From NCBI RefSeq assembly GCF_004348985.1, contig NZ_SMKW01000009.1, positions 25,276-89,275 on the forward strand: 64,000 nucleotides of DNA, read 5' to 3'. How positions within the stretch are numbered: the stretch's first letter is position 1; each line of letters starts with the position of its first letter. Below the pieces are notes generated by a model. That model had not been told where the DNA came from and did no database searches. It worked only from the letters and a program-made list of their open reading frames with translations. The position numbers were made by a program, and so were the translations under genes. The DNA is from Saccharopolyspora elongata (GTDB lineage: Bacteria > Actinomycetota > Actinomycetes > Mycobacteriales > Pseudonocardiaceae). Of this stretch, positions 3,394 to 42,060 are shown piece after piece.

Positions 3394-3471
3394 CGTGGCA
3401 CTCCTGGTTGTGGATCTTGCGTCCGTAGGACGCGGCGGAGTGCGTTCGGGTTGCGTGCGATCGGTCGCGGA

Positions 3472-15406: not shown

Positions 15407-16432
15407 TATGCCCGCCACCTCGCGCTGACCTGCGAAAACAAGATTTCGCAGGTCAGCGCGGATTCGTTCAATGCGGTTGAGATCCGTTCACCGCAGTTCA
15501 GCGCACAGCGCTGCTCCCCGTTTGCTCCCCACCCTGCTCCCCGCCATGACCATCACATGTCTTTCCTCACACTGATTCAATTCCTACATGGTTGGCGACA
15601 CCTCCACGGGGCGCGGAGAGCACCCGATGCTGACGACGCACCTGGCCGCGCTCGCCGGCAAAGTCGATCAAGGAAGTGGGTTCCGCGCCGATTCTGCCTG
15701 GCATCGGTCGGTAAATCCGCAGGTCAAAGGTAGGTAGGTCGACCCATCTGTCGGGGCAACGTTCGTGATCTTCTTGACCCATCTCCTGGTTCAACTTTGG
15801 TGGCCCGCGCCAGCATGCCAGCCCACACGACCTGATCCTGTGCTGCGGCAGGATCTTCGCCTACGCCCCGTCCGATGCCAACTAGCCGCCAGGACGCAGA
15901 TGGAAAGGGCGTCGACGACGTCCGCCCGATCCGCGACGACATCGACCGCCGCGTCGGCGCCCTCTCGCCGGACTCGTGCCCGAGGCGGCGAAGTGAGAGC
16001 GATGTCCGCAACGTGATCATCGTGGGTCGGCGCTCTGATCCACTGCCCAAGTCCGTGCCTGGTGTCCGCGGCCATCGTGGACACCAGGCACGGAGGCTGT
16101 TCAGTGAAACCAGGATCCGGTTCTGCTTAATTTTCAGCCGTCAAACCGCCCGGGCTCTGCTGGGTCTGCCTCACGCCAGTAGCGCCGCCGGTTCCCACTT
16201 CACCAAGAAACTCCGCCAGGCCGGTATCTGGAAGCCCGCGTTCATCGCGCTCACCCAACTCGCCTCCAAAACACCCTGAATGGAGCAAGCTTGCCTCCGA
16301 ACGGTGCGATGTGCCGAAATGTCCTTGCTCTCTGCCCGTTATGGCTTTGATACTTACAGTCACGATGATCCAGGTGCTGAGACCCACGGGCGAGTGGCCC
16401 CTTGCCCGGGTTTACCTTTTCCGCACGAACGA

Positions 16433-17674
16433 ATGGGGATACCTGTGACCTCTGTCGAACCGTCGAAGCCGCTCACGATCCTCAATGGTCCCGTGCCGCA
16501 CGGGGTACCCAAACCGCCGGATAAGCGGTTTATCGTGTTTGGTCAGGATTGGCTCACGATGCAGACGTACATCAAGCAAGCACTCGCGCTGCCCATCAAC
16601 AAGGCGGACTGGGAGAAGGATTACGGCGGTTTCCCGGAACAGGAGAACGAAATCAAGAAGGTCCTGAGCGCCATGAAAAACGTCCAGGACCTGTGTCCAG
16701 ATTTTGGCGATCCCGACATGATCCGGAAAAAGATAATTAGCGACGGAGCTTACCTTACGGGCAAGACTCCGCCCGCTGAGATATACGGGCACATCATTTG
16801 GCTTTCCACGCAGGTCAGCAATACCGCGGGCACGTTCAAGTATACCTTCGAAAGCCTGAAGGATGTGCTCAGCACAGGAACGGAAAAGCAGCGGGCCGAC
16901 AACCTGCGGTTGATCCTCGGCGGCAGTGGAGGCCTGCTCTCCGAAGCCGAGAAGGAAAAGAAGAAGGTTGCCGAGCTCAGCCAGAAACTGGCCAAGTTCG
17001 ATCAGAAGATCACCGAGGCGAACAACGAAGTCGCCATCTACACGAGTTCTTCGTCCAAGATCCTCACGGCGGCGAACAAGAAGATCGGAGCCCTCGAGAC
17101 GGACGTCAAAAACCTGCACACGGCTGCGGACAAGGCGTACGAGGAGTGGCGCAAGTACACCATTGTCGCGGTCAGCACCTCGGTCGGGATCACGGTGATC
17201 AGCCTGGGGCTTCTTGCCTCGGTCGGATGGGCGTTTGGTATTGGGTTCGGGATCGCCGCGATCAAGGCGCGGAAGCTCTACAATCAGATGCTCGACCAAA
17301 TCAAGGACAAAGAGGTTGATATTCAGAAGAAGACCCGACTGGTCACCGATCTGACCGGCCTGAACTCCTCCATTCCGTCGATCGGGGATTCGCTGACTCG
17401 TTTCAAGAACAACCTGCAGGAGATCGAGGGGGTGTGGACCGACATCGCCGGCAAACTTGGCTACATCTGCTCGAACTACCAGGACAAGGACCTCGCCAAC
17501 CTTGCGTGGGTCCAGCAGTCCCTGAAGATCCTCGATGCCCAGCACAAGTGGGCCGAGATCCAGACGGCGGCTCAGGAGTTCACCCAACGGTCCCTCGTCA
17601 CCTTCTCTCCGGTCGGCAAATGGGGCAACAAGCTCACCGAGGAGCACCAGCAGGCCCACGCACTGGCGATCTGA
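16433..17674 (+). CDS. ClyA/Hbl/Nhe-family alpha-helical pore-forming toxin-like protein, component with hydrophobic hairpin
   Basis: Long coiled-coil-like sequence with a central ~35-aa hydrophobic stretch (IVAVSTSVGITVISLGLLASVGWAFGIGFGIAAI), as in the beta-tongue/helical hairpin of ClyA-family toxins. Low GC. The start is uncertain: 16319 and 16559 are alternatives. Confidence 0.55.
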   Translation: MGIPVTSVEPSKPLTILNGPVPHGVPKPPDKRFIVFGQDWLTMQTYIKQALALPINKADWEKDYGGFPEQENEIKKVLSAMKNVQDLCPDFGDPDMIRKKIISDGAYLTGKTPPAEIYGHIIWLSTQVSNTAGTFKYTFESLKDVLSTGTEKQRADNLRLILGGSGGLLSEAEKEKKKVAELSQKLAKFDQKITEANNEVAIYTSSSSKILTAANKKIGALETDVKNLHTAADKAYEEWRKYTIVAVSTSVGITVISLGLLASVGWAFGIGFGIAAIKARKLYNQMLDQIKDKEVDIQKKTRLVTDLTGLNSSIPSIGDSLTRFKNNLQEIEGVWTDIAGKLGYICSNYQDKDLANLAWVQQSLKILDAQHKWAEIQTAAQEFTQRSLVTFSPVGKWGNKLTEEHQQAHALAI

Positions 17675-17727
17675 AACGCGACCGGGCGCATTTGCCACGC
17701 ACCGAGCATGACCAAGGAGGCGTCGAC

Positions 17728-20133
17728 ATGCCCAACTGGGATGTGCTAACGAAGAAGACCGCCGCGTTGACGTTCAGCGAAGTGACCAAATCCGACGGCA
17801 ACCAGAAAGAGGTCACCGTCAGCGGGCTGCGGGTGCGCCTGTCGGAAATCGGTGCCTGTACGCAACTGATGTCCGTGTTCGCCGACACCCTCGTCGTCGA
17901 CTATCCCACTTTCGACGCTCCTGGTGTTGTGGTGGTCGCCCGGTCGCTGGACCTCTCGGCACTGAGCGGCTCGGCCCTGCCTCTGAGGGTGCCTGCCGGC
18001 CATGGCCCCAACGTGGCACAGTTCCTCATCGGCGGCACCGTCGGCGGCGACTTCCGTATCAATACGGAGAACGTGACCAGCGGCGCAAAGACCGTGCCGG
18101 TCGGGATGACCCCGCTGAAAGCCGCCCTGCACCAGGTCGCCCACGACGGCACGATCACGCAGGACATCAACTCCGGTGCCAAGGACATCGCGGACTTGAC
18201 CGGTCGTCCCTGGGCCCTGGGCAGCCTGAAGGCAAGCGTCACCGCCGCGGGATCCTTAATGGACACCGGCATTCCCGCGGACACCGCACTCGCTCGCTCG
18301 ATGCTGGCCTGGGTTGTCGCGTGCATTCAACAGGCTGGCCAAACCTGTTTCAGCAGTGCCACCGTGGCCGAACTGGCTACTGTCGGACGACAGGCCGCAG
18401 CCCTGCTCGCCACACTCGACGTCGCATCCGGCGCCCGCTACGTGCCCGTCCTGCCAGGGGCCTTCTACAAAGACAAAACCACGGCTCTGCTTGGCGTCCT
18501 GGGCGGTTATCAAGCCGATCTCAATACCCTGTCCACCGCGCAGGAAACTTCGAAGGCCCTGAAAAGGGTCGCCGGGACACTCGCCGCTAATGCCAAGACC
18601 GAGACCGACCCGCTGACCGTCCGGCTGCACAGCATCACGTCGAACGTCGACCATCTCAAGGCCGACCTCACCACCTTGACCGGTCAGCTCGACACCCAGT
18701 ACAACCGGGCCCACACCGCGTTCACGGTCATGCGCGCCAAAATTGCCCTGCAAGACGTGCAGAACTTCGTAGACGCCTACTTCGGCGCGGTCATCGCAGT
18801 CGTCAAAGTAGGTGTGGGGGCGGCCCAGGCCGTCGAGGACCCGACGAAGGTCTCGGAAGTCGCCCACGGACTCTACGACGCGGCGGACAAGGCATACACG
18901 GCGATTGGCCAGATCCCGGAAGACCAACCCGGCGACGACGAACTACTCCAGGCGACCCGCACGCTACTGCGTACCCAACAACGCATTATCGCTTCCTTCG
19001 AATCCGCGACCACGCTGTGGAACGCCCAGGACAACGAAACCATCGGCGCGTCCCCCCGGCCACTGACGGAGTCCGACCAGCAGTTCGCGGCCGATCCGAC
19101 CGTGGCGTGGGATGTGTACCTGACACGGGCGCAGGCAGCCCTGGACACCATCAAGCAGCGGATCGGCCAATCCCACGCCGAGGAGGCGCAACAGGCGGCG
19201 AACAACTACTGGGCCGAGTTGATGATCTTCGGGCGGTATGGCAAGGCTCTCGCGGTCACGGCGAACGCCTATGCCGCCCAGCTCGCCGAGGCCAGTATGG
19301 TGCGCGCCCAGATCAAGGCGACGAACGAAGTGGCCGATCGCTGGAAGGCTCTGGAGCAGACCTGCCGCACCGACAAGGAGCGGCAGGCCCTACTCATGGG
19401 GATACTGCAGACCCGGGTGGACACCGTCAAACGGTCGCTGCACGTGGCGTGGACCTACTATCGCGACGCGTACTTCTATCTTTACTTTGCCCAGCCACCA
19501 GCGATCGATCTCGACGCGCCTATCTCAGATATCCGGCGCCAACTGGCTGCGATGACCGACTGGGTCGAGCGAGCGATCAGCCAGAGCGGTAACAAAGTCC
19601 AGTTGCCCGGAAGAGACGCGACGATCAGCCTTGATCTGCCGATCATCCACGCGGACACCGCACACCAGTCGGCAGCCGGCGTCATCGCCGCCACGCTCGC
19701 CCAAGACCCCACGAACAAGATGTGGACGCTGAGCTGGACCGTGCCGATGGGCGCACCGCTGCTCGCGCAGCAGCTTCCGGACAACGGCAATGTCGCAATC
19801 TGGGTGACCTCAGCCGAGTTCTTTGTGGACGACGTGACTCCGAACCCCGCGGGCAGGGTCATCGTCGAGGTGGCGACCTCCGGCTGCTACCAGAACGGAT
19901 TCGGGCCGGCCGAGTCACACACCTTTGTCGCCAAGGGGATCACTGGGACCTACGCCTACAAGCAGGAGGGGAAGCAGGTCTACTCGCCGTGGGAGATCGG
20001 CAGAGACGTCTACATGACACCGACGTTATTCACACAGTGGACCATGACCTTCGACCAGAACGGTGGGAATCCACAGCGGGCGACGAAGCTGCGTCTGAAC
20101 TTCCACGTCGACTACCAGAAGAAGCCACATTAA
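17728..20133 (+). CDS. Large (~800 aa) mostly helical protein with C-terminal beta-rich domain, toxin-operon partner
   Basis: Strong Shine-Dalgarno AAGGAGG 8 nt before the ATG. Co-oriented and tightly spaced with flanking toxin-like genes. No enzymatic motif recognised. Confidence 0.6.
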   Translation: MPNWDVLTKKTAALTFSEVTKSDGNQKEVTVSGLRVRLSEIGACTQLMSVFADTLVVDYPTFDAPGVVVVARSLDLSALSGSALPLRVPAGHGPNVAQFLIGGTVGGDFRINTENVTSGAKTVPVGMTPLKAALHQVAHDGTITQDINSGAKDIADLTGRPWALGSLKASVTAAGSLMDTGIPADTALARSMLAWVVACIQQAGQTCFSSATVAELATVGRQAAALLATLDVASGARYVPVLPGAFYKDKTTALLGVLGGYQADLNTLSTAQETSKALKRVAGTLAANAKTETDPLTVRLHSITSNVDHLKADLTTLTGQLDTQYNRAHTAFTVMRAKIALQDVQNFVDAYFGAVIAVVKVGVGAAQAVEDPTKVSEVAHGLYDAADKAYTAIGQIPEDQPGDDELLQATRTLLRTQQRIIASFESATTLWNAQDNETIGASPRPLTESDQQFAADPTVAWDVYLTRAQAALDTIKQRIGQSHAEEAQQAANNYWAELMIFGRYGKALAVTANAYAAQLAEASMVRAQIKATNEVADRWKALEQTCRTDKERQALLMGILQTRVDTVKRSLHVAWTYYRDAYFYLYFAQPPAIDLDAPISDIRRQLAAMTDWVERAISQSGNKVQLPGRDATISLDLPIIHADTAHQSAAGVIAATLAQDPTNKMWTLSWTVPMGAPLLAQQLPDNGNVAIWVTSAEFFVDDVTPNPAGRVIVEVATSGCYQNGFGPAESHTFVAKGITGTYAYKQEGKQVYSPWEIGRDVYMTPTLFTQWTMTFDQNGGNPQRATKLRLNFHVDYQKKPH

Positions 20134-20161
20134 GCGCGGCGAACCACCACGGGAGCGCACG

Positions 20162-30135: not shown

Positions 30136-31125
30136 ATGTGGGCTGGGGGACGGTCCCAGCAAACCGGGGTTGACGAGGATGTAGATTCGTCGTTCTTTGT
30201 CTCCTATTCCCACGAGGATGCGCATTACGTGACGCGCCTCGTTGACCACCTGCGAGGTTTTGGGCTTCCGCTTTGGTTCGACGGTCATTTGGCGTGGGGT
30301 AGTCAGTTCACCCGGGAGATACGTCAACGGCTCTCGCGTGCCCTGGGGATCATCGTGGTCATGTCGCCGGGCGCTGACCAGTCTGAGTGGGTAGAGCGTG
30401 AAATCCTCGAAGGTCAACGACATGATCGTCTCTTCTTGCCGATCCTGCTGAGTGGGGAACGACTGTTCCTGCTTGCCAGCAGCAACTACTTCGATGCGCG
30501 GGACGGTTCATTTCCTGGTGAGCGGGAGATCCAGGAGCTCCAACGCATCCGAGACGCGAAGCCCGGCTTTGTGCCTCGGCAGTCGCCGCTGGACATCCCC
30601 GCTGGAAAACCCGCGCCTCGCACCACACGTGTTCCTGCTCAGATCTCCCTGCGGAAGCTCTCAACATTCCTCGCCGATGGCCAGCTCGAACATGCCGACA
30701 TCCTGACGACCTCACTGCTTCTCGAGTCGGTGAATCGCATCGACCACGGGTGGATGCGCAGAACGGACGGGAAAACGATTTCTGCTGGTCTGCTGCACGA
30801 TGTGGACGACCTCTGGTCCAGGTTTTCCGGCGGACAGCATGGATTTCGGGCGCAACTAGCGCTACACCGAGTCCCTCCGCCGGGCGCGCCAGAGGGACGC
30901 CAGCGGGACTTTTCCGCGTTGGCACTTTCCCTCGGTTGGAAGAGTGCCCAGCGTGACACTATGCCGAGATATGGTGATTTCATCGCCCGTCCGGAGTTCC
31001 CAGCCGGCTTCTTTCCGACCCTGCGCAACCCGCAGCTCGAACAGAATCAAAGCTGGCATGACCACTGGATGGAAACCGTGATGGCAGTTCAGTTGCAGCT
31101 TCGCGCGACGAAAGGGTGGAAATAA
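30136..31125 (+). CDS. TIR domain protein with C-terminal domain of unknown function
   Basis: FFVSYSHEDAHYV...LPLWFDGH...IIVVMSPGADQSEWVEREI is a bacterial TIR (TIR_2-like) pattern including the conserved Glu. The C-terminal ~190 aa are unassigned. Confidence 0.8.
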   Translation: MWAGGRSQQTGVDEDVDSSFFVSYSHEDAHYVTRLVDHLRGFGLPLWFDGHLAWGSQFTREIRQRLSRALGIIVVMSPGADQSEWVEREILEGQRHDRLFLPILLSGERLFLLASSNYFDARDGSFPGEREIQELQRIRDAKPGFVPRQSPLDIPAGKPAPRTTRVPAQISLRKLSTFLADGQLEHADILTTSLLLESVNRIDHGWMRRTDGKTISAGLLHDVDDLWSRFSGGQHGFRAQLALHRVPPPGAPEGRQRDFSALALSLGWKSAQRDTMPRYGDFIARPEFPAGFFPTLRNPQLEQNQSWHDHWMETVMAVQLQLRATKGWK

Positions 31126-32873
31126 CGGTGCTAACGACAGTGGTCGTGCTTTCTGTGTTTCTCCTCATCGGGCTGTTAGCGTTCGTGGTTAAAAGCATTG
31201 GCCGGGTGCCGACCGGCCATGTTGGCCTTGTCTATCGCACGTTCGGACGGCGCCACCCGGACGATCGCTTCAGGGTGCGCGTGCATGGCAGTCCCGGCCC
31301 CCAAGCCGCGATTCTTGAGGCCGATCACATCTACTTCCTTCCTTTCCTCATCTACAAAGTCACCTACGCGCCCCAGACATACGTGCCGCCAGGAACGATC
31401 GGCGTCGTCCGGGCGAAAGAGGGCGCTACTCCGCAAGACCGGCCGCTTTGCCGACACGTCGAGTGCGATCAGTTCCAGGACGGCCACAAATTCCTCACGA
31501 ACGGCGGCCAGGCGGGAAAGCAACCGGCCATCCTCCGGGGCGGGGCGTCCTACGATATCAACCCCTGGATCTTCGATGTGATCACGGTCGACAACATCGG
31601 TGAAGGTCGCTACGGGCTCACCGCCGAAGACCTGAGGGAGATCACTGTTCCGGAAGGTGAGACGGGTGTGGTGATCGCGCTCGACGGCAACCCGCCCGGC
31701 GAGGAGGGCGGCGTAGTCGGCCGGCGGGTCCCCGGACACCAGAGCTTCGAGTATCCCTGGAAGTTTCTTGCCAATGGCGGCCAGCGTGGCGCACAAGCGG
31801 AAACGCTGAGCCATGGCGGTCTGTATGCGATCAATCCATGGTTCGCGCGGATCGTGCTCATCCCGACCCGCAATCTCACCCTGGAATGGACGCGGAAAGA
31901 GGACAAACCACGAAGCAACTTCGATGCGGCGCTCGACAAGATTGTCATCAACGTCGAAGGCCACCGGCTAAGTTCGAGAATGTCGCAGATCATTCGGATT
32001 CCGGCCAAGGCGGCACCGCAGCTCGTCGGCCTCTTCGGCGAGCATGAAAGCGATGCGTTCGGCGTGAGCGGCGCATCGGACCCGACCCCAGTGCAGCGGT
32101 TCGTCGAAGGAGTGCTCGGTCGCACCGTTGAGGGGTATTTCCACAGCACCGCAGCCGACTACCGAGTTCTTGATTTCCTCGGCAACCACAACGAGGTGCG
32201 TCTAGAACTTGAGGGACGGGTGCGTGACGACCTCGCCGAATGGGATGTGGAAGCGGTCCGTACGACGCTGGGCGAATTCGAGCCGGAAGGTACTGACATC
32301 GACCGGTTTCGGCAGAAAATTCAGCAAGAACGTGATCGTCAGCACTACCTTGAACACCGTGAGAAAAACGTTCAGATGGAAGCGAAAATTGAAGAGGTGT
32401 TGATCGCGATTGAGCGAAATCGAGGCAAGGTCGCGACCGCTGAACTGGAGGACGAAATCAGGCTGCTGGGCGTGGACCATGTCGCGTTCGCGCGCTTCCT
32501 GGACCGACTAGCGGAGATGGACGTGCCCGAGTTCGTCGGAAGCGATTCAAGCGCGCAAAACATGCCTTTGCCCGCTGCCCTTAACCTGATCAATAAGTAC
32601 CTTGCCGGGCCTGGCAGGGAGCCCGGGGCGACCTCGCCACGGGAGTTGGACCCGGCGCGCGGTTCCCGATCTGATCACCAGCTATCGCCGCAGCCCGCTG
32701 ACGACGATTCTGCCACCGCGACAACGGAACGGGTGAGCCGAGTTCGCGGCACCATGCGATCCACTGTGGATGGTGAGGCCTACTCGGCCGACCCCGAGAA
32801 CGGGCAAACCCCGAAGATTAACCGCGTACGCGGAACGGGAAAATCGCATCAGCCCGAGAACGACGATGCGTAA
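31116..32873 (+). CDS. SPFH/band-7 (flotillin-like) membrane protein
   Basis: N-terminal TM helix, then an SPFH-like core (GRVPTGHVGLVYRTFG...PFLIYKV...). It contains an internal tandem repeat FLTNGGQAGKQ...YDINPW / FLANGGQRGAQ...YAINPW and a C-terminal coiled coil. The GTG start overlaps the TIR gene's last codons. Confidence 0.7.
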   Translation: MEITVLTTVVVLSVFLLIGLLAFVVKSIGRVPTGHVGLVYRTFGRRHPDDRFRVRVHGSPGPQAAILEADHIYFLPFLIYKVTYAPQTYVPPGTIGVVRAKEGATPQDRPLCRHVECDQFQDGHKFLTNGGQAGKQPAILRGGASYDINPWIFDVITVDNIGEGRYGLTAEDLREITVPEGETGVVIALDGNPPGEEGGVVGRRVPGHQSFEYPWKFLANGGQRGAQAETLSHGGLYAINPWFARIVLIPTRNLTLEWTRKEDKPRSNFDAALDKIVINVEGHRLSSRMSQIIRIPAKAAPQLVGLFGEHESDAFGVSGASDPTPVQRFVEGVLGRTVEGYFHSTAADYRVLDFLGNHNEVRLELEGRVRDDLAEWDVEAVRTTLGEFEPEGTDIDRFRQKIQQERDRQHYLEHREKNVQMEAKIEEVLIAIERNRGKVATAELEDEIRLLGVDHVAFARFLDRLAEMDVPEFVGSDSSAQNMPLPAALNLINKYLAGPGREPGATSPRELDPARGSRSDHQLSPQPADDDSATATTERVSRVRGTMRSTVDGEAYSADPENGQTPKINRVRGTGKSHQPENDDA

Positions 32874-32911
32874 CGAGGGCGCTCACGACGGCGGGAGATG
32901 AGGCAACGACC

Positions 32912-33949
32912 TTGGTGCGAATCCAAGCAGTTGGCACGCCACAAAGCGCAGTATGGAGCCACGGTCGTCCAGGCTTGTTCGCCATGGGCGTGTGGACGGA
33001 AAGAAAAGCCGGAAGCGGTGAGGACGCCGAGCCACTCTTGCTCCACGACTGGTCGCACAATGCGGGCCTCGCGGCGGTATTCGATGGCGCGGGTGGCGCC
33101 GGGGCAGCCAGCGCCGGACACTCGGCGCAGGGCGTCGAGCGCAGTCACGCATGGGTGGCGGCGCGTGCAGCACGCGGGCTGACGGAAGAGTGGTTCGTTA
33201 CGACCGGCCAGCACGGTGTCCAAGACCATGCGGCTTCACTGGAGCAGCATCTCGCCGAGCGGCTCGGCGAAGTGCGTGGCGCCAGCCGAAGCAGGATCGC
33301 CGGGTCTATGCGGCGGGATTTGCCGACGACCGTGGCGGCGTTGCGTTACGAGGTGCATCCCGACAGGGTCGTGTGGCAAGTGTTGTGGGCCGGGGACTCC
33401 CGTTGCTACCTGCTTGACTCCGAACACGGCCTGCAGCAGGTCAGTCGCGACGACGCCGAGTCGGGTGATGCACTGGTGCTGCTGACCGAGGACCCACCGA
33501 TGACCAACATGGTGTCCGCGAACCGCCGATTCACAATCCACGCCGCTCCCGGTCACGCGGCGATCCCCTGTCTGCTCGTGTGCGCCACGGATGGCTTCTT
33601 CGGTTACCTGAACACGCCGGCCGAGTTCGAGTTCCTGCTGCTCGACACGATGGCGAACGCCGCTGACTTAACAGATTGGAGCACGCTCCTGACACAAACG
33701 GTGAGTTCCTACACCGGCGACGACGCATCGCTTGCACTGGTAGCGCTGGGATTCGACGATTTCGATCAGTTGCGCGCCGATTTCGAGTGGCGCAGATCGG
33801 CGCTTCAGGCCGAACACATCGAGCCCACCAGACGAGCATCGGACGGGGACCGGGAATCGTTCGTCGCCGCGAGAATGGAATCCTGGAAGCTCTACCGCGG
33901 GTCCTACGAGCAGCGGATGCCGCGGCAGCACGGGCAGGAACGTCCGTGA
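32912..33949 (+). CDS. PP2C-family Ser/Thr protein phosphatase
   Basis: Motifs AVFDGAGGAG, WAGDSRCYLL and CATDGFF. The start is uncertain: TTG/GTG at 32912-32915 or ATG at 32984. Confidence 0.8.
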   Translation: MVRIQAVGTPQSAVWSHGRPGLFAMGVWTERKAGSGEDAEPLLLHDWSHNAGLAAVFDGAGGAGAASAGHSAQGVERSHAWVAARAARGLTEEWFVTTGQHGVQDHAASLEQHLAERLGEVRGASRSRIAGSMRRDLPTTVAALRYEVHPDRVVWQVLWAGDSRCYLLDSEHGLQQVSRDDAESGDALVLLTEDPPMTNMVSANRRFTIHAAPGHAAIPCLLVCATDGFFGYLNTPAEFEFLLLDTMANAADLTDWSTLLTQTVSSYTGDDASLALVALGFDDFDQLRADFEWRRSALQAEHIEPTRRASDGDRESFVAARMESWKLYRGSYEQRMPRQHGQERP

Positions 33950-35007
33950 AGAAAGGCGACGTCATCGGCGACTACCACATCACCAGCAAACCCACGAACA
34001 CCGATGCGGGTAAATGCTTGTGGGCGTTCGCGGAAAAGGACGGCCAGGAGTTCTTCATCAAGGAGTTCCTCGACCCGAAGCGCCCTCGGGAAAATTTCAT
34101 GGGAAGCCCGGAGGCCAAACGTGCGATCGTCGCGCAATGCGAGGAATTCGAGGAGCGGCACTGGTCGGTTATCGAACTCCTCGACCCGGAGGACCTCGAT
34201 GCTGGGAACCTGGTCACCGCAGTCGATTTCTTCTTCGAGGGAAGCCGCTACTACAAGGTCACCAGGCGGCTGCATCTGGCGGACCTGGCGGACCCACACC
34301 TGCTCACGCCGTACCAGAAGAGCGTGCTGCTCGGCACCCTGGCCGACAGTCTGCGGCTGCTGCATCGCAAGGGCATCGTGCACGGCGACCTCAAGCCGCA
34401 GAACGTGCTGCTGCACCAACCGCCGGGCAGTGACCTCTTTACTGCCAAGCTGATCGACTTCGACGACGCCTACATGTCCGGAGCCCCGCCCGAGCGCACG
34501 GTGATCGGCGGGGACGCGCTATATGGGGCACCGGAGTGGATACGGTATGTGCAAGCCGACCCTGAAATCGGACCTGAACAGCTGGTCACCGCCGTCGACA
34601 TGTTCGCATTCGGCCTGATGGCGCACACCTACCTCACCGGCGCACTGCCCGGCTACGACAAGCGGCACGGCTCTCCAGCCGAGGCGGTCAACGCGGGAGA
34701 CGTGCTCGAGTTCGACGACCGGCTGAGTCCGGCACTGCTGCACACCTTGCGCGCGTTGTTACGCGCCGACCCGGGCTCCAGACCGCACATCGCCGATGTC
34801 CAGGACCTGTTGGAACAACAGGAGCAACTCGCGCTGCGAACAAATCCCCCTGCGCCGGAGGACGATTACCGAGTGAAGGTCGGGCGGCTGCAGATCAACT
34901 TCGGCGGTGGGAAAGAGCCCCCAAGCCCTTCGAGCGGTACCCAGTCGCGCGTCCGCATCAATTTGGACGGGCGCAATCCTGAAGGCCGAGACGAGCAAAG
35001 GAGATAA
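33946..35007 (+). CDS. Ser/Thr protein kinase
   Basis: VAIK-type Lys (FFIKEF), catalytic loop HGDLKPQN, DFD, GAPEW. The GTG start overlaps the phosphatase stop (GTGA). Confidence 0.85.
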   Translation: MKKGDVIGDYHITSKPTNTDAGKCLWAFAEKDGQEFFIKEFLDPKRPRENFMGSPEAKRAIVAQCEEFEERHWSVIELLDPEDLDAGNLVTAVDFFFEGSRYYKVTRRLHLADLADPHLLTPYQKSVLLGTLADSLRLLHRKGIVHGDLKPQNVLLHQPPGSDLFTAKLIDFDDAYMSGAPPERTVIGGDALYGAPEWIRYVQADPEIGPEQLVTAVDMFAFGLMAHTYLTGALPGYDKRHGSPAEAVNAGDVLEFDDRLSPALLHTLRALLRADPGSRPHIADVQDLLEQQEQLALRTNPPAPEDDYRVKVGRLQINFGGGKEPPSPSSGTQSRVRINLDGRNPEGRDEQRR

Positions 35008-35010
35008 ACG

Positions 35011-35718
35011 TTGACCGGGAGCGGCCCGAATAACAACAACCTGAAGTATGCCGTGGACATCGTGTTGTGCATCGACGTGACCGGCAGCATGGGACCCACC
35101 TTGGATCAGGTCAAGGAAAACGCCTTGTCCTTCCACCAGCAGCTCAGCTCGGTGATGGAGGACAAGGGACGCAGCATCAGCCAGTTGCGGCTGAAGGTCA
35201 TCGCGTTCCGAGACTTCGCCGACAGTCCGGACAACGCCATCGAGCAGACCGGTTTCCTGACCTTCCCCGAACAAGCCCACGATTTTGATACGTTCGTGCG
35301 TGGCCTGCGCGCATCGGGTGGGGGAGACGCGCCAGAATCAGGCATGGAGGCGCTGGCCCTCGCGATGGCGTCCGACTGGGAGCAGGGACTCGACCGGCGG
35401 CGCCACGTGATCGTGGTGTTCACCGATGCCCCCGCGCACCCTCTCGGCTCACCGGACCAGATACGGGCGCGCACCTATCCGCAGTCTATTCCGCGCTCGA
35501 TGGCCGAGGCATTCGATCAGTGGGGTTTCGCGCACAGCCAGAAGGCGATCATGGAGAACTCCTCCAAGCGACTGCTGCTTTTCGCCCCGGAAACCCAACC
35601 TTGGGTCGACATCTCCGAGAGCTGGAACAACACGCTGTTCTTGCCGTCTAAGGCGGGAGAGGGCGTTCATGAGTGGGAGATGGACGAGATCATCAACACC
35701 ATTGCCCACAGTCTCTGA
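35011..35718 (+). CDS. von Willebrand factor type A domain protein (TerY-like)
   Basis: MIDAS motif DIVLCIDVTGSM. TTG start 3 nt after the kinase stop, with GGAGA upstream. Confidence 0.8.
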   Translation: MTGSGPNNNNLKYAVDIVLCIDVTGSMGPTLDQVKENALSFHQQLSSVMEDKGRSISQLRLKVIAFRDFADSPDNAIEQTGFLTFPEQAHDFDTFVRGLRASGGGDAPESGMEALALAMASDWEQGLDRRRHVIVVFTDAPAHPLGSPDQIRARTYPQSIPRSMAEAFDQWGFAHSQKAIMENSSKRLLLFAPETQPWVDISESWNNTLFLPSKAGEGVHEWEMDEIINTIAHSL

Positions 35719-35731
35719 CAAGGCGGTGCGA

Positions 35732-36419
35732 GATGTGGCGGCGACCCAGAAACCGGAAGAGACACCCGCAAAGGGTGCGGGCGAGCTGGGGTCCGGATTC
35801 CTCAAATGAGTTCGAGTCGCGCTGGTACGACGAGCGCGGTCGCCCCACGGGCCACGTGCGGGTGGTGGACTGGGACGAGCGGTTCGATGCCCCAGATCGT
35901 GTGGCCTTCCTTGTGGAAGGTCACGGCGTAATACTGCAATTGCGAGCGGGCCGGATCAAAATCCACGAGACTCAGAAACAGCGAAGAAGCATTCGGCTGA
36001 ATCTTCCGATCGAATCGTGTGTCTCCGCGAATGTTCAAGAGCGCAGGACGTCAGACGGATCGGTTGTGCTCCGGTTCGACCTCCGGGCAAAGATCGGGGC
36101 GTCCTGGCCAGAGCCGATGTCCGTCTCTCTGCTCTTTCCGGCTGAATGCCGACCGCAGCTTTCCCACCTCGTTGATCAGTTACATGAGTCGGATCGAGTC
36201 GAACCTGTCGGACCCGCGGCAGCGCAGGTAAGCGAACCACCGCCGCCCGCGAATGAGGTACCGCCGGGCCGTGTTGATGAGGAACGCAAGTCGCCGACGT
36301 TCCGGCAGCTATCCGTCGTCGGGGTTCCAGACACCGAGGAATGGTTGAGCTTTCATCCGTTACCGAGCAGCGCCGACGTTTTCGCGTTCAAACCGCCTCG
36401 CGGGACTGGAAGAAGGTAG
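35732..36419 (+). CDS. Hypothetical protein with highly basic N-terminus
   Basis: 229-aa ORF in the same operon, no recognisable domain. Confidence 0.45.
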
Positions 36420-36431
36420 GCGGGAGAGCAC

Positions 36432-37346
36432 ATGTCCGACCAGGTGTGGGTCTGCGACGGCTGCAACACTAACAACGCCGCCGAGGCCGCGGTCTGCCGC
36501 CGGTGTAAGCGCGAACCGGGCAGCACGACGTCCACGGAAGTCCGGCTGGCATCCGACGAGGCCGTGACGCCCCGTCGACAGGACACGGAGCCACCGGATA
36601 CCTCGACGCCCTCGTTGTCCCGGCCGGACGAATCCGCGACGCCCCTCTCACGGGTTCGGGTCAGCAGCCCGGATTCGTCCCCCGCCTCCAGGTCAGGCTC
36701 CGCACCGGAGGACATGCCTCGCGAAACGGAGAGTTCCGCACCGGTGGAGTCCTCTCGGCCGTCCCGACGTGATCGGAGAACGCTGGCGGTGGTCGGCGTG
36801 CTGATCGTTCTGGTAATCGCCGGCCTTATTGCCCTTCTAGCCAGCCTCAGCCTAGCCAGCCTCAGCGTGGCAACGAACGAGAACCACTCAGGCCCCACGT
36901 CAACCGTGCCAACCTCGTCTTTCACTTTCCCGCCCAGCGCCTCCGCTTGGAGCGCCTACGGCGGGCTCGACGCGGAATCCTTCGACTGGCAGTCCGGGGG
37001 CATCGCCGTCAACCAAGATGGCTACATCGGCCCGCTCTCCCGCGGAGACTCCATTCGCTTCACGAACGTCGATTTCGGTTCGGTGCCGGCGACAGAGGTT
37101 TCAGCCCAGCTGTGGACCTGGGTCGGTGACGGGGTGAATGCGAAGATCGACGTCCGACTCGATGGCCCGGAGGGCAAGCTGATCGGCAAGATCAATGTGT
37201 CGCCCGAGAAGCGGCGGGAATGGAAGAATGTGCCGGTCAAACTCGTAAATGGCCCCGTGACGGGCAAGCACACCGTGTACCTGACCTTCGTCGCAGACAA
37301 GCCCGAGGACTTCATGTACCTCAACTGGATCCAGTTCCACCGCTGA
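36432..37346 (+). CDS. Zinc-ribbon / single-TM / carbohydrate-binding-module-like protein
   Basis: N-terminal double CxxC (VCDGCNTNN...CRRCK), Ser/Pro-rich linker, TM helix (LAVVGVLIVLVIAGLIALLASL). C-terminal beta-sandwich resembling CBM6/CBM35 (FTNVDFG...YLNWIQF). Confidence 0.6.
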   Translation: MSDQVWVCDGCNTNNAAEAAVCRRCKREPGSTTSTEVRLASDEAVTPRRQDTEPPDTSTPSLSRPDESATPLSRVRVSSPDSSPASRSGSAPEDMPRETESSAPVESSRPSRRDRRTLAVVGVLIVLVIAGLIALLASLSLASLSVATNENHSGPTSTVPTSSFTFPPSASAWSAYGGLDAESFDWQSGGIAVNQDGYIGPLSRGDSIRFTNVDFGSVPATEVSAQLWTWVGDGVNAKIDVRLDGPEGKLIGKINVSPEKRREWKNVPVKLVNGPVTGKHTVYLTFVADKPEDFMYLNWIQFHR

Positions 37347-37469
37347 CCGCGCCATAAACCGTCCACAATGGAACAGCCCTTCCGGGCCATTCCGGCCGGG
37401 CAGATAAGTGAAGTGACTTCGCCCCCCCGCGGTGTGGCGGCATACTGTGATCAAGATCAGATGAGGCGG

Positions 37470-37674
37470 TGGTGGCGCTGGCCGGTCAGGGAAGTCGGGC
37501 GGACGAAGAGCCCAGCTGGGACTCGGTGGGTGTCGCTGCCGGCCAGCATCGCCACGGCCTACGAGACCTTGATGCAGTCGCACGATAGCCCGTGGGTGTT
37601 CTGTACCCCGGACCGGGCGCCGCTGCGCCGGTCGAATTTCCGGCAACACTGCTGGCGTCCCGACTTGGGCCAGG
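37470..37674 (+). pseudogene. Tyrosine integrase internal fragment, truncated by IS insertion
   Basis: TKSPAGTRWVSLPASIATAYETL...PLRRSNFRQHCWRPDLGQV aligns with PKTPASVRAVHLPPFLVDLLTEH...LHRRSNFRRRFWLPALAGD of the intact integrase (58150-58360). The catalytic C-terminus is missing. Confidence 0.5.
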
Positions 37675-38290
37675 TTAGTGCGTACTTGTTCGGGTGCGGA
37701 TGGCGTCGAGGACCTGTTGGACGTCGTTGGATAGCGGGTCGGCTGCGGTGACGACGTGTTCACCGGCCTGGATCTGGATGGTGCGGTAGCGGCGGACCGT
37801 TTTGACGAACTTCTTGATCGACCAGCCGGTGGTGTCCTCGATCCAGCGGGAGACGGCCAGGGCGGCGAACACGATCGTGAGGGGCTTCGATCGAGTCTTT
37901 GGTGCGGTGGACATCGGGCGGGCGGCCAGGTCTGACTTGGCCATCCGGAAGCTCTTTTCGACCTGAAACAGCTGGTGGTAGGCGTCGATGACCTTCTCCG
38001 GGGTGGGCTCGGCGATGTTGGTGACGTAGCCCTTGATCCCGGCCAGCGCACGGGCCTTGGCCTCCAGCTCCCGGTTGACCGTCTTCGTTGCGTTGTCCAG
38101 CTTGACGAACCGGTTGCGCTTGACCGCGGTCTTGCCCGCGACGGCCTGCTCGGCCTTGGCTCGTCGATTCCCTTGAGCGTCCGGCGGGCCCGGTCGTGTT
38201 TGTATTGGTAGTAACGTACCTGGTCACGGCGCTTGTCGCGGCGCCCGGCAGGCAGGGCGTGTGCAAAGTTGATCTGTTCGGTTTAGGTTG
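37675..38290 (-). mobile_element. IS4-superfamily (IS1634-like) transposase remnant, frameshifted
   Basis: AVKRNRFVKLDNATKTVNRELEAKARALAGIKGYVTNIAE...YHQLFQVEKSFRMAKSDL (Y..RW.IE..F...K motif) in one frame. The upstream part (DKRRDQVRYYQYKH...) is in another frame. Confidence 0.55.
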
Positions 38291-38299
38291 TTTCGGGCA

Positions 38300-38575
38300 G
38301 TAGGTTCAGGAGTCGTTCGGGCCTGCGGTTGCCGGCGCGGAGTGCGGGGCGGATGTGGGTGGCTCCGTGCTGGCGGTGCAGGGTGATCGCGGTGTTGCGG
38401 AGGATGGCGAAGTTCTGGGGTGCGTTGCCGGTGCGGGCACGGTGGCGGTCTTCGTCGAAGGCGACGTCACGGATCAGGTGCAGGCGGTTCTCGATCGCCC
38501 AATGGCCCTGGATGAGTTCCGCCAGGTCAGCTGGGGTGGCGGCGGTGGGTGGCAGATCGGTCAGATAGCAGGCTG
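38300..38575 (-). mobile_element. ISAs1-family transposase C-terminal remnant
   Basis: ELIQGHWAIENRLHLIRDVAFDEDRHRARTGNAPQNFAILRNTAITLL matches the conserved HW.IEN.LHW.LDVTF.ED..R.R.G C-terminus of ISAs1/H-repeat transposases. An in-frame stop lies upstream. Confidence 0.55.
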
Positions 38576-39115
38576 TCTCGATGCTGGCGGGCTAACTTTC
38601 GGCCGGCGCCAGCGCCGGATCCGGAGTGCCTGCCGGGCATTCAGCAACTCCGGCCGCAGACCCTCGTCCAAGGCAAGGACTTTCAGGCTCCTGGTCTCAG
38701 CACGCCCGTGCCCGCGGCCGCGATTCTGCTCACCGAGGCGAGTGTCGTTCCAGCGCACGGTTTGAGACCAACGGAGTTCAAGCCGCGCGGTGCGAGAACG
38801 TCCTGCTGCAGCGCGTTCACCTGCCGGAGTAGTTCCCCGAGCAGATTCGAGGGTAGTTCTGCCTGCACGTCGACCGCCTGCACCTGCTCGGTGCCACCAT
38901 CCACCCGCCAGCGCTCGCCGCCGGCCTCAAGCCGACGTGGATGTCCGTCGCGGAGCGCTGCGACCTGTGCCTGCGGCTGGATCTCCCGCGCCACGACCTT
39001 GGCGCCGACGCCTACGCCCGGACGGGTCTCCTCGTCGCCGATCATCTGCGTACGCTGGAGCCCGGCATCACTGTACGGGTACGAGTACGCGGCAGTAGGT
39101 TCGTGCGCGTGCACA

Positions 39116-40123
39116 TCACCGAACAACAGCCGGATTCGGCGCAGTGGCGGCATTGTTGGGCGGTACTGGGACGCTGCGGTGCAAGGCACGCCAGTCGGTT
39201 GGCGTGTAGCCCAGGGCGTTGCGGAAACGGCGGGAGAAGTGCGATGCGTCGACGAACCCGCAGGCGCGGGCCACCGCGGCGATGGTGAGGTTCGGCTGCG
39301 CGAGCAGGCGTCGCTGAGCGATTTCTAGTCGCAGCTGCATGATTGTTTCGTTGAGGGAAAGCGGTTGGGACTGCCACAGCTGGAACAGCTTGCGGACCGA
39401 AATTGCGTGAGCTGCAGCGATCTGGTCAGGGTTGACGTCCGGGTCGGCGGCGTGCATGCGCACGTAGAGCGTGACCCGGCCCAGGAGATGGTCGTGGACA
39501 GCGGCGCGGCGTTGGTAATCGTCCTGTGATGTGCTGGCCACCAGTCCCTTCAGCAGGGTTACGGTCGCCTCAGCGGTGGCCTCACGGGCCTGGTGGCTGG
39601 TCAGCAGCGGGGCGTAAGTGGCCAGGGAAGCCAGGTGATCGTGGACCACGCCGTACAGGGGGCTGGTCGCGAGACGGTGGTCGGCCGAGCGGATGGTCTC
39701 CACGCTCGCTTCCAGTTGGGAACGCTCGACCTGGATGCTAAAGCCCGCGCCGGTGCCCTGACAGCGGTAATTGAATGCAGCGTTCAGATCCGTGAGGAAG
39801 AGGTTGCCGCGACGCAACGGTCGGTGGTAACCGTGGTGTTCGTAGTAGCCGGGCGCGCCGTCGAACAGGACGAACGCGATCCGGTCTGGTCCGGTCCGGT
39901 TCCGGTGTTCCTCGGTACGTTCGTGCACGGCACTGGTGTTGACGGTATGTACCAGCGTGACATTGCGGTGCAGTTGGGTCCCAGCTACACGGGCTTGAAT
40001 GGACGCCGGGTGCTCGGTGAGGAAGCGGACCCGGGTTGGTGATACGGCATTGGCGAACGCGGCCTCGAAAGCCGCGGCGCGATCCTTCGGGGCGAATTGC
40101 CCAGCGTCGAAGAGGATTTTCAT
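39116..40123 (-). CDS. AraC family transcriptional regulator
   Basis: ATG after GGAGAC. C-terminal AraC HTH (IAAVARACGFVDASHFSRRFRNALGYTPTDWR). Confidence 0.8.
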   Translation of the reverse strand: MKILFDAGQFAPKDRAAAFEAAFANAVSPTRVRFLTEHPASIQARVAGTQLHRNVTLVHTVNTSAVHERTEEHRNRTGPDRIAFVLFDGAPGYYEHHGYHRPLRRGNLFLTDLNAAFNYRCQGTGAGFSIQVERSQLEASVETIRSADHRLATSPLYGVVHDHLASLATYAPLLTSHQAREATAEATVTLLKGLVASTSQDDYQRRAAVHDHLLGRVTLYVRMHAADPDVNPDQIAAAHAISVRKLFQLWQSQPLSLNETIMQLRLEIAQRRLLAQPNLTIAAVARACGFVDASHFSRRFRNALGYTPTDWRALHRSVPVPPNNAATAPNPAVVR

Positions 40124-40261
40124 GTGGCAGTCTCCATTAGGCGCAGCAATCGGCAGCTGCTGCGGATGCCTCCCAGCTTCGACCGAAACCCTACGGGCGC
40201 GCGGCGCGCAGAGCGATACTTTGTGCACGCTCCGGGTCTCGGCAGAGTCACCCAGCTTGGG

Positions 40262-41233
40262 TCAGGTGGTGATGTGGAGGGCTGCGTGCAGTGTGGTGGT
40301 GGCTTGGTTGATGGCGGCATCGGCGGCGTAGGTTTCGCGTAGGGCGTTGAGCATCACGAAGTCGTGGATGATGCCCTGGTAACGCGTGGCGGTCACCGGG
40401 ACGCCGGCCTGACGCAGCTTGTTGGCGTATGCCTCGCTCTCGTCGCGGAGCACGTCGGCCTCGCCGGTGATGACCAGCGCCGGCGGCAGGTTCTTGAGTT
40501 GCTCGACGCTTGCGCGCAGCGGGCTCGCAGTGATCTCCGCTCGCTGCGCGGGGTCGGTGGTGTACTGATCCCAGAACCAGTATATGGCGTCGCGGCGCAG
40601 GAAGTAGCCCTCGGCGAATTCGTGGTACGAGTCGGTATCGAAGGCGGTGTCGGTGACCGGGTAGAACAGCACCTGTTGCACCAGCGGCACGTCGCCGCGC
40701 TCCTTTGCCATGAGCGTCAGGGCAGCGGACATGTTGCCGCCCACCGAGTCGCCGGCGACGGCGATGCGGGTGGCGTCCAGATCTTTGCTCGCGCCGTCGG
40801 TGACGATCCAGCGGGCGACGGTGTAGTTCTGCTCGATGGCGACGGGGTAGCGGGCCTCGGGGGAGCGGTCGTACTCGGGGAAGACCACAGCCGCATTGGC
40901 GCCGACGGCGAGTTCGCGGACCAGCCGGTCGTGGGTGTGGGCGTTGCCGAACACCCAACCGGCGCCGTGGAGGTAGATGATCACCGGGAGGACACCGGTG
41001 GCCCCGGCGGGCTTGACAATGCGGGCCTCCACCGATCCGGTCGGGCCGCCGTCGACGGTGATCCATTCGTCGTCGACCGCGGGCTTGGCGATGTCGCTGG
41101 ACTGGACGTCGTCGACGGTCTTGTGGCCGTCGACCGGGCCGAGGTCGAACAGAAACGGCGGCTTGGCAGTCGCAGCCGCGAACTCGGCGGCGGCCGGTTC
41201 GAGCACCGGTGGCATCGGAACGTACTCAGACAT
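40262..41233 (-). CDS. Alpha/beta hydrolase (esterase/lipase, HSL-like)
   Basis: HGAGWVFG oxyanion motif and GDSVGG nucleophile elbow. Confidence 0.85.
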   Translation of the reverse strand: MSEYVPMPPVLEPAAAEFAAATAKPPFLFDLGPVDGHKTVDDVQSSDIAKPAVDDEWITVDGGPTGSVEARIVKPAGATGVLPVIIYLHGAGWVFGNAHTHDRLVRELAVGANAAVVFPEYDRSPEARYPVAIEQNYTVARWIVTDGASKDLDATRIAVAGDSVGGNMSAALTLMAKERGDVPLVQQVLFYPVTDTAFDTDSYHEFAEGYFLRRDAIYWFWDQYTTDPAQRAEITASPLRASVEQLKNLPPALVITGEADVLRDESEAYANKLRQAGVPVTATRYQGIIHDFVMLNALRETYAADAAINQATTTLHAALHITT

Positions 41234-41879
41234 GATTGCGACTCCTCATCTGGGTGCGGATGACGATGTTCGGTTGACCGGGTGAGCTGCCGCCCGGAAG
41301 AACTGGCCTAGCAGGGCGCTGGCCTCAACCCCGGGCGCGGTGGCACCCGGACACAGGTCCGGAAGATGCGCGACATGGCCCTGGATGGTCTCGGAGGCTA
41401 GCGGCGGGACGCCGCATCCTCCATCCGCGAATGAATCGTTTGCACGCCCAGCTTTTCAAAGACCGCAGAGAACCGGGTGTGCTGAACGTGCACGTCCTAA
41501 GTCCAAGAACGCAAACATCGGTGCACAACCCGCCGAAACGGACCTTCGACAGGCTCGCTTCGCCCGAGGGGTCGCACAAGCACACGCGGCGTAGGCCGGT
41601 GCGCCCCAGGTCTGCCCAGACTTTGTCAACCAAACCCTGAGCAGACCCGGATTGCTCGTCGGCCTGCAGATGAAGCAGTTCATCCTCGCGCTGGACGTAG
41701 CTGAGATCTACACGGCCAGTGGCGGGGTGATGGCTATCCCGCCGCCTTAGCCTGGAGTCCCGTGGAGCATGGCCTAACGGCGGACTCTTCGTGGTGCGAA
41801 GCTGTGGATGATCCATCCCTTCACCACCGCCCGCCTCGCCACCTAGCGACAGCTGTCGCTGAGGGCGCGCTGCGCACCG

Positions 41880-42060
41880 GGGAATTGACACCCGCATGCG
41901 CCGGGCCGACGCGATCAGCACCCCGAATGGTCAGCAGGGCAGGGAACGATCCCCGCGTGCGTGGGGCCGACGAAGCCGAGAACATCGCCGACGACCGTCC
42001 GGTAGAACCATCCCCGCAATGCGCGGGGCCGACTGCCCCGCAGGTAGACGTCATTCTTGG
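41880..42060. repeat. Three tandem imperfect direct repeats (~60-bp period) upstream of ECF sigma operon
   Basis: GGAATTGACACCCGCATGCGCCGGGCCGAC / AGGGAACGATCCCCGCGTGCGTGGGGCCGAC / GGTAGAACCATCCCCGCAATGCGCGGGGCCGAC. Each unit is GGAAY-like, then ~18 nt, then CCGAC, reminiscent of an ECF-type -35/-10 arrangement. Confidence 0.5.

Follow-up and report, generated by a model that had tools for sequence, protein, structure and literature searches.

Among the closest described counterparts of the locus reported here are the TerY-P systems, in which a von Willebrand factor A (vWA) protein, a PP2C phosphatase and a Ser/Thr kinase (STK) are predicted to form a phosphorylation switch, and for which phage defence has been shown (PMC11090510). 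We use TerY-P as it is defined in that paper on CoCoNuTs, according to which the triads were first tied to tellurite and stress loci, TerY-P-like triads are also joined to further conflict modules, CoCoNuTs among them, and the kinase carries either, by the 2012 definition, a C-terminal zinc ribbon or, in the systems that Gao tested in 2020 as stand-alone defence, an OB fold. A second precedent is the actinobacterial theme of a kinase, a PP2C phosphatase and a stand-alone vWA protein beside GAP1-N2 (Kaur, Burroughs, Iyer and Aravind 2020, PMC7159879); in the searched passages of that work, regulated assembly and interactions with peptides are the roles predicted for the vWA domain. Here we describe a seven-gene cluster of Saccharopolyspora elongata in which a related triad stands behind the genes of a TIR–GUN4 protein and a flotillin-like SPFH protein. 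The cluster lies in a 64,000-nucleotide stretch of contig NZ_SMKW01000009.1 (positions 25,276 to 89,275 of the forward strand), which consists of high-GC actinomycete DNA; it is called the window below and is numbered from its first letter.

The cluster occupies positions 30136-37346 of the window, and all seven genes are read from the forward strand, as a preliminary description of this DNA had stated. The genes are as follows:

30136..31125, forward strand: gene 1, TIR–GUN4 protein (Pfam TIR_2, 3.9e-17; GUN4, 9.3e-14)
31116..32873, forward strand: gene 2, membrane-anchored SPFH/Band 7 protein (Pfam Band_7, 2.8e-11)
32912..33949, forward strand: gene 3, PP2C-like Ser/Thr phosphatase (precomputed PP2C_2 matches, Stp1 profile match and motifs)
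33946..35007, forward strand: gene 4, Ser/Thr kinase (Pfam Pkinase, 2.8e-19; start set by the GTGA overlap)
35011..35718, forward strand: gene 5, stand-alone vWA protein (Pfam VWA_4, 5.5e-11)
35733..36419, forward strand: gene 6, PH/PTB-like protein (without a family match; conserved homologues)
36432..37346, forward strand: gene 7, RanBP-type zinc ribbon–transmembrane (TM)–CBM6 protein (CBM_6, 1.2e-17; Zn_ribbon_RanBP, 0.004)

The spacing had been given as overlaps or gaps of 13 nt or less. This was found at the TIR/SPFH junction (an overlap of 10 nt with the GTG at 31116 as the SPFH start, or a gap of 2 nt with a start at 31128), at the GTGA overlap of the phosphatase and kinase genes (33946-33949) and in the 3 nt between the kinase and vWA genes, but not between the SPFH and phosphatase genes, which are separated by at least 38 nt, the widest spacer in the cluster. 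The two remaining spacers measure 14 nt (vWA to gene 6) and 12 nt (gene 6 to the zinc-ribbon gene). In the profile searches TIR_2, Band_7, Pkinase, VWA_4 and CBM_6 scored above their thresholds, but our own Pfam scan gave nothing for PP2C; the GUN4 domain fused to the TIR domain had been overlooked. Apart from the gap, the GUN4 domain and an integrase fragment treated below, the seven-gene cluster is essentially as first described.

The cluster consists of two separately conserved cassettes and is not one conserved unit: the idea that the seven genes form such a unit failed the neighbourhood check, in which none of 80 loci with the TIR–GUN4/SPFH pair or its SPFH relatives carried the triad. 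For the cluster as it stands in the window, the reading that we prefer, tentatively and at somewhat less than an even chance, is that of a composite, mobile conflict operon in which a phospho-switch would gate a scaffolded TIR effector. We infer that the role of the operon is probably anti-phage or in abortive infection.

The SPFH family was surveyed with one genome per species. This gave 90 relatives, all from actinomycetes or actinomycete metagenome-assembled genomes (MAGs), and 80 of their loci were taken with 10-kb flanks (L001-L080). Directly upstream of the SPFH gene, on the same strand, 76 of the 80 loci have a TIR–GUN4 homologue, which supports the earlier proposal of a functional pair made up of the TIR protein and its flotillin-like partner. 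Meanwhile, homologues of the PP2C, vWA, gene 6 and zinc ribbon/CBM proteins were found within 10 kb in none of them. When the neighbouring open reading frames (ORFs) of the 80 loci were clustered, only the TIR–GUN4 and SPFH families proved to be conserved, together with an antisense shadow ORF. Because no third neighbour family is conserved, the pair appears to move through otherwise unrelated contexts. As a cassette of actinomycetes, the TIR–GUN4/SPFH pair is both autonomous and widespread, being present in at least 76 species.

The partner of the SPFH protein varies. A NACHT NTPase gene takes the place of TIR–GUN4 upstream of one SPFH gene (L076, 6730-9897), GUN4 proteins with non-TIR N-terminal domains stand beside two others (L061 and L075), and members of the SPFH family itself are fused to a CHAT (caspase-like) protease (P0066) or to a protein kinase (P0105 and P0116). 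Such an exchange of partners around one family is typical of conflict systems. No report combining SPFH proteins with TIR or with anti-phage defence was found in the searchable literature. Next to one of the stand-alone pairs (L177), a SLATT_1/SLATT_3/DUF4231 gene at 3194-4084 on the reverse strand is convergent to the pair; SLATT domains are linked to conflict systems.

In the window TIR–GUN4 protein, TIR_2 covers residues 20-131 (63 bits against a Pfam cut-off of 28) and the GUN4-like domain residues 169-298. A phmmer search of the PDB returned the bacterial TIRs 7uxr, 4lzp and 3h16 as well as the GUN4 structures 1z3x and 4ykb. The preliminary description had placed a catalytic glutamate in the motif WVEREI, and E89 of this motif indeed aligns with the conserved Glu of the solved bacterial TIRs 7uxr, 4lzp and 4c7m. 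The window TIR thus carries the W-x-x-x-E glutamate of the TIR NADases and is a candidate NADase. The match to the ThsB_TIR model is marginal (23.1 bits against a cut-off of 21.2) and that to SAVED_TIR is weak; the PADLOC kinase model PD-T4-6 matches the GUN4 region (7e-8).

With Thoeris, TIR-SAVED and TIR-STING the pair has in common the canonical TIR glutamate, these marginal or weak model matches and the layout of a two-gene cassette with a non-TIR partner. It differs from them in that an SPFH scaffold stands where they have ThsA (SIR2/SLOG or Macro), SAVED or STING, none of which is present in the window pair, in that the TIR domain is fused to GUN4, and in that half of the family lacks the glutamate. 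Thoeris was rejected, as there is no ThsA-like gene in the cluster or in the 80 related loci. Conflict proteins that contain GUN4 (TIR-, caspase-, kinase- and NACHT-GUN4 fusions) are treated as specific to cyanobacteria, and their GUN4 as a sensor of chlorophyll precursors, in the searched parts of the literature (PMC7159879, PMC8195603, 10.1101/2022.07.19.500537). The protein described here shares with them the architecture of a GUN4 sensor joined to an effector domain, whereas in the present family GUN4 is widespread in non-photosynthetic actinomycetes and is always paired with SPFH.

The window SPFH protein, to which a protein of Saccharopolyspora elongata shows 100% identity, scores 44 bits against the Pfam Band_7 cut-off of 23.6. 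Its N-terminus is a hydrophobic (TM) helix at residues 2-27, and because positive charges follow this helix, the bulk of the protein is probably cytoplasmic. The AlphaFold2 model (pLDDT of 70 overall and above 80 across residues 1-260) runs from the TM helix through duplicated beta-rich repeats, the SPFH domain and a long helix to a disordered tail, and the internal repeat is also visible by tblastn. A Foldseek search with this model returned prohibitin, HflK/C, erlin, stomatin and flotillin (6e-10 to 3e-4), and the major vault protein was matched over its whole length (555-574 columns, E 7e-9); the sole match of the sequence profile to the PDB was PH stomatin (0.005). Judged from the model, the protein has what defines the SPFH/Band 7 superfamily, namely an SPFH domain, an oligomerising helix after it and a membrane anchor, and it looks like a vault/flotillin-type cage former. 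The likeness to the SPFH cages (HflK/C–FtsH, QmcA–YbbJ, flotillin, prohibitin and stomatin) and to the major vault protein extends over the predicted fold, with vault-like N-terminal repeats, an SPFH 'shoulder', a long helix and a membrane anchor, and over the presence of a partner gene alongside, as in hflKC–ftsH and qmcA–ybbJ. The difference is that the partner in the window family is TIR–GUN4 and not a protease or NfeD, and that CHAT, NACHT and kinase partners are swapped in.

The second cassette was compared with triads in other genomes. The PP2C, kinase and vWA genes recur next to each other in actinomycete and in low-GC loci, which bears out the preliminary view of them as a conserved triad. 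The actinomycete order is PP2C–STK–vWA, followed by a homologue of gene 6 or another small protein and then by a zinc ribbon–linker–TM protein; among the low-GC relatives 35 have the order vWA–PP2C–STK, which is also found on a Herpetosiphon plasmid, and a Calothrix plasmid carries vWA–kinase. To judge from these arrangements and from the gene next to a low-GC triad described below (L141), a zinc-ribbon protein seems to be a constant companion of the triad family across phyla. The plasmid-borne relatives adjoin a resolvase or transposase.

The upstream side of the triad was examined where at least 1.5 kb of sequence was available there, which held for 17 non-redundant loci. In 14 of them an nSTAND3-like NTPase (700-800 aa) and a partner of 340-440 aa precede the triad, in one an SPFH gene does, and the other two, one of which has a different architecture, have neither. 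Of the eight STAND triad loci with enough sequence, five have at their head a small TIR protein that is not related to TIR–GUN4. Together with the four lineages described below, in which an SPFH gene precedes the PP2C gene, this means that the association of the triad with a TIR-type effector recurs. As part of the preferred reading, the SPFH/TIR–GUN4 pair would hold the place that STAND/TIR modules have in related operons. In a human-gut metagenome locus (L141, 13078-14496), the gene after vWA–PP2C–STK starts with two RanBP-type zinc ribbons; by eye, the remainder of its sequence has a GNAT acetyltransferase-like region and helical repeats at the end.

One STAND locus, L083, has the order nSTAND3–partner–PP2C–STK–vWA–small protein–zinc-ribbon protein–GAP1, and its triad is 43-68% identical to that of the window. 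It exemplifies what the window shares with the GAP1-N2 theme of PMC7159879, namely a homologous triad, as far as the searched passages of that paper describe it. The window differs in having neither GAP1 nor a STAND NTPase and in having the TIR–GUN4/SPFH pair at its head. A GAP1 gene was not found among the window ORFs scanned (22999-41233), and the searched passages of PMC7159879 contain no link of the triad to SPFH or TIR–GUN4.

The individual proteins of the triad appear to be intact. The PP2C protein gave no significant Pfam match of its own, but precomputed PP2C_2 matches exist for the identical gene and its orthologues, its profile matches S. aureus Stp1 (5f1m, E 8e-4) in the PDB, and a weak Stp1 match was obtained in NCBIfam; in the alignment the metal-binding motifs ED, DGxGG, GDSR, TDG and DD are invariant and intact. 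The kinase (353 aa) is of the HGD (non-RD) type and, with its DFD and APE motifs, is active-looking. Its best PADLOC and NCBIfam models are mad6/MAD6, far under the cut-off; it contains no Cys pairs and no additional Pfam domain, and a fusion to a zinc ribbon or OB fold was not found. The MIDAS motif DxTxS of the vWA protein is intact. This protein is 100% identical to one of S. shandongensis; its profile had no matches in the PDB, and it matched no PADLOC or NCBIfam model.

Gene 6, which had been noted as a basic protein, is a real conserved gene, with homologues after the vWA gene in many loci. It is uncalled in the public annotation of the 98.6%-identical S. shandongensis contig (L081). A word-indexed homologue search recovered the query alone, and an exhaustive HMMER search yielded 29 cluster representatives. 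Members of the family have a PH/PTB-like N-terminal domain of about 140 aa, a Pro-rich linker and the C-terminal motif LPxLxVxxAPDxxDWxxFRP; this acidic-aromatic peptide is a plausible candidate ligand of the MIDAS vWA protein. The protein encoded by gene 7 consists of a RanBP-type zinc ribbon, a Pro/Ser-rich linker, one TM helix and CBM6. As an RRDRR stretch precedes the TM helix, the zinc ribbon is predicted to be cytoplasmic and CBM6 extracytoplasmic. Orthologues with the same zinc ribbon, linker and TM helix end in differing C-terminal domains (L083, L089, L115, L116 and L118), and among the zinc ribbon–TM orthologues read, CBM6 is the ectodomain of the window protein only. The protein therefore looks like a receptor with a variable outer domain.

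We consider it very improbable that the locus is a bona fide TerY-P system (Anantharaman 2012, Gao 2020) with accessory genes. Such an assignment has in its favour that the vWA, PP2C and STK genes are all present and contiguous (32912-35718), that a zinc ribbon is part of the system, and that the low-GC relatives, with a vWA identity of about 48%, have the canonical vWA–PP2C–STK order. However, TerY-P has the order vWA(TerY)–PP2C–STK, whereas the window and all of its high-GC relatives have PP2C–STK–vWA. The window kinase lacks the C-terminal zinc ribbon or OB fold, the zinc ribbon being on a separate TM receptor or, in sister loci, on the head gene; moreover, there are additional conserved parts, namely a PH/PTB-like adaptor, the zinc ribbon–TM receptor and, as the head, STAND or SPFH. 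A tblastn search of 72,556 plasmids with the vWA protein, a collection that we presume to include ter-operon plasmids, matched 15 records at E<=1e-3, none of them enterobacterial; on this comparison at the level of BLAST, the protein may still be a distant relative of TerY. PADLOC v2.0.0, which may lack TerY-P models, matched neither the vWA nor the PP2C proteins of the window and the low-GC triads, and no match to TerY-P came from NCBIfam. Filing the triad under TerY-P, as the preliminary description had done, is not justified in view of the differing gene order and the kinase without a fusion, along with the lack of a match in the plasmid search and in PADLOC. For all seven proteins, the low-GC triad relatives and the flanking genes PADLOC gave generic TIR and kinase matches only, and the impression that no named system has this composition agrees with the lack of a match in PADLOC and in the searchable literature. 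A Ter (tellurite) locus was rejected, as no TerZABCDE-type genes occur among the proteins scanned.

The junction of the two cassettes was then traced in other genomes. An SPFH gene in the slot of the STAND gene was found in only four lineages, which the preferred reading treats as one lineage centred on Saccharopolyspora, and the TIR–GUN4 head only in the window type. The SPFH–PP2C junctions are as follows:

Window and L081 (S. elongata and S. shandongensis): 38-nt gap
L082 (S. gloriosae CP059557): 8-nt overlap
L173 (contig assembled from a sequencing run): 28-nt gap
L176 (MAG contig): 34-nt gap

In L082, L173 and L176 the SPFH gene is preceded not by TIR–GUN4 but by the gene of a protein of about 374 aa that ends in the same kind of zinc ribbon. 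L082 and L173 are without the downstream zinc-ribbon receptor, and the L176 contig ends inside the vWA gene. A downstream sigma-70 gene is common to L082 and L173, and the flanks of both are unlike those of the window. The window phosphatase and kinase are nearest to those of L082 (66% and 63% identity, against 43-57% for the STAND-linked ones), and in a crude neighbour-joining tree the three SPFH proteins linked to the 374-aa protein form one clade, sister to the window protein with those of L171 and L177. No recombination breakpoint was visible inside the SPFH gene by segment-wise identity, and no terminator-like site was found when the SPFH–PP2C gap of the window was scanned. The adjacency in four lineages, the gap without a terminator, the affinity of the phosphatase and kinase and the SPFH tree fit a history in which the SPFH–triad junction arose once and head genes were later exchanged and lost; repeated juxtaposition or recombination is a possible alternative.

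The same evidence bears on an alternative that we take seriously, though we think it less probable, in which two independent systems lie next to each other in a variable island, the autonomous pair and a triad that has lost its STAND head, on a common strand and perhaps with read-through transcription, but without functional coupling. Each cassette does occur alone, the triad being absent from all 80 SPFH loci and a STAND head being present in 14 of the 17 triad loci; the nearest relatives of the window pair are stand-alone, the gap at the junction is the largest in the cluster, and unrelated defence systems commonly cluster in islands. Against this, SPFH stands directly before PP2C in four lineages with differing flanks and with two head genes, the two genes even overlap in L082, the window gap contains no terminator, and triads with neither STAND nor SPFH are as rare as two in 17, one of them of different architecture. 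As a separate observation, two more genes with TIR domains follow the SPFH–triad operon of L082 at a distance of some 8-10 kb downstream (18796-20708), one for an AAA_16–TIR protein and one, running off the locus, for TIR–GUN4; the region thus holds several TIR genes.

The operon appears to be horizontally mobile, which is part of the preferred reading, that of a composite conflict operon. It shares the following block with another species, and the following remnant lies beside it:

26485..41887: block of 15.4 kb, 98.6% identical by blastn to S. shandongensis contig JBEYTC010000026 (L081)
38286..38582, reverse strand: degenerate IS4-family transposase fragment (DDE_Tnp_1 C-terminus, 99 aa; 99% identical by tblastn to the L081 product)

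The flanks of the 15.4-kb block differ on both sides; its left breakpoint falls inside a DUF6880 gene, and in L081 an ISL3 transposase lies just beyond its right end. The GC content is 0.60-0.65 at the cluster against 0.69-0.73 at 1-14 kb of the window, in agreement with the low-GC island noticed earlier, and the IS4-type fragment corresponds to the insertion sequence (IS) debris reported with it. The 'integrase fragment' (37368-37751) was not confirmed, since it had no Pfam match at E<=1 and no phage match by tblastn.

In the conflict operon as we tentatively picture it, in line with the earlier proposal of a triad that controls the TIR effector, cassette A would comprise the cytoplasmic TIR–GUN4 protein and the membrane-anchored SPFH scaffold, and cassette B the kinase, the PP2C phosphatase, the MIDAS vWA protein, the PH/PTB-like adaptor and the zinc ribbon–TM receptor as a five-part phospho-switch. 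An envelope or infection cue would be sensed by the receptor and the kinase. The resulting phosphorylation, reset by PP2C, would alter the assembly of the vWA protein and the PH-like adaptor on the SPFH scaffold, and TIR–GUN4 would thereby be released or oligomerised. NAD+ hydrolysis or a nucleotide signal from TIR–GUN4 would then lead to a growth stop, and GUN4 may contribute a small-molecule (tetrapyrrole-like) input.

Several results weigh against this proposal. Apart from the window, the full seven-gene composition was found in no locus but the 98.6%-identical relative, none of the 80 SPFH loci has a triad gene in its vicinity, and the pairs closest to that of the window, L171 (74% SPFH identity) and L177 (61%), both stand alone without a triad. 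The SPFH, vWA and PH-like proteins are without a match among the PADLOC models. In an alignment of 74 TIR–GUN4 sequences drawn from L001-L080, the canonical position is Glu in 32 and Met in 34, so that NADase chemistry may not be the common denominator of the family; E92, which lies one helical turn (three residues) past E89, is conserved in 68 of the 74. Finally, 1215 homologues of the vWA protein were found, with identities of 60-78% across actinomycete genera and of about 48% to low-GC bacteria (gut and other metagenomes), and this sequence conservation is far higher than is usual for arms-race genes.

The last two points would also suit a non-immune module for envelope, cell-wall or tetrapyrrole/redox stress signalling in filamentous actinomycetes, in which the receptor, the STK/PP2C pair and the SPFH scaffold would regulate physiology or development, with TIR and GUN4 as adaptor or ligand-binding domains. 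In the 74-sequence family, conservation along the protein peaks in the GUN4 half and is lower in the TIR half, half of the TIR family lacks the canonical glutamate, and the receptor bears an extracytoplasmic CBM6. Housekeeping roles of STK/PP2C pairs and of SPFH scaffolds are known in bacteria. The first link of TerY-P triads to tellurite and stress loci (PMC11090510) points the same way. We nevertheless find such a module improbable in view of the patchy distribution and non-syntenic context of the genes, their association with TIR, STAND, NACHT, CHAT, GAP1 and SLATT genes, their plasmid, IS and resolvase links, the variable receptor ectodomain and a GC content below that of the flanks.

In this locus two widespread, uncharacterised candidate systems are fused, an arrangement that is rare and lineage-restricted, and the locus is best classed with known kinds, namely TIR effectors, TerY-P-like switches and SPFH scaffolds. 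A bolder idea, which we put forward as doubtful, is that TIR–GUN4 and a vault-like, membrane-anchored SPFH cage form an unrecognised, widespread immune module of actinomycetes, in which SPFH would sequester or license the TIR protein, and that in Saccharopolyspora this module has been wired to a TerY-P-like switch, a PH-like adaptor and a carbohydrate-binding TM receptor; the response would be triggered at the surface via Ser/Thr phosphorylation and executed on the SPFH scaffold. If the coupling is real, an SPFH/vault-like cage, a TIR effector and a receptor-fed, eukaryote-like Ser/Thr switch would be newly connected in bacterial immunity. SPFH proteins would then have a defined client in actinomycetes and GUN4 a role beyond photosynthetic organisms, and the locus would be a tractable example of TerY-P-like triads gating effectors. 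Regardless of coupling, two candidate families emerge: the TIR–GUN4/SPFH pair and the (TIR)–STAND–partner–PP2C–STK–vWA–PH–zinc ribbon operon.

Some further features of the window lie around the operon. Upstream of it, a DUF6880 protein encoded inside the shared 15.4-kb block (26191-27279, reverse strand) matches the PADLOC candidate PDC-S62 weakly (5e-8). A 137-aa ORF directly before the TIR gene (29624-30037, forward strand) matches a nucleoside 2-deoxyribosyltransferase very weakly (E 0.14); the public annotation of the near-identical contig does not call it, and it may be what is left of a gene. Where the GC content of the window is lowest (0.58-0.64), a run of four or five ORFs in the same direction, of 134, 464, 899, 329 and 334 aa (15875-22095, forward strand), gave no significant Pfam or PADLOC match and may be further uncharacterised island cargo. 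A prolyl-oligopeptidase (Peptidase_S9) ORF at 22999-24864 on the reverse strand has an N-terminus matching DDE_Tnp_1_assoc, which suggests that its start carries a fused or overlapping transposase-associated remnant. Far from the operon, at 58742-61048, the window contains a tRNA Val-CAC gene on the reverse strand and a Gly-GCC/Cys-GCA/Val-GAC tRNA cluster on the forward strand.

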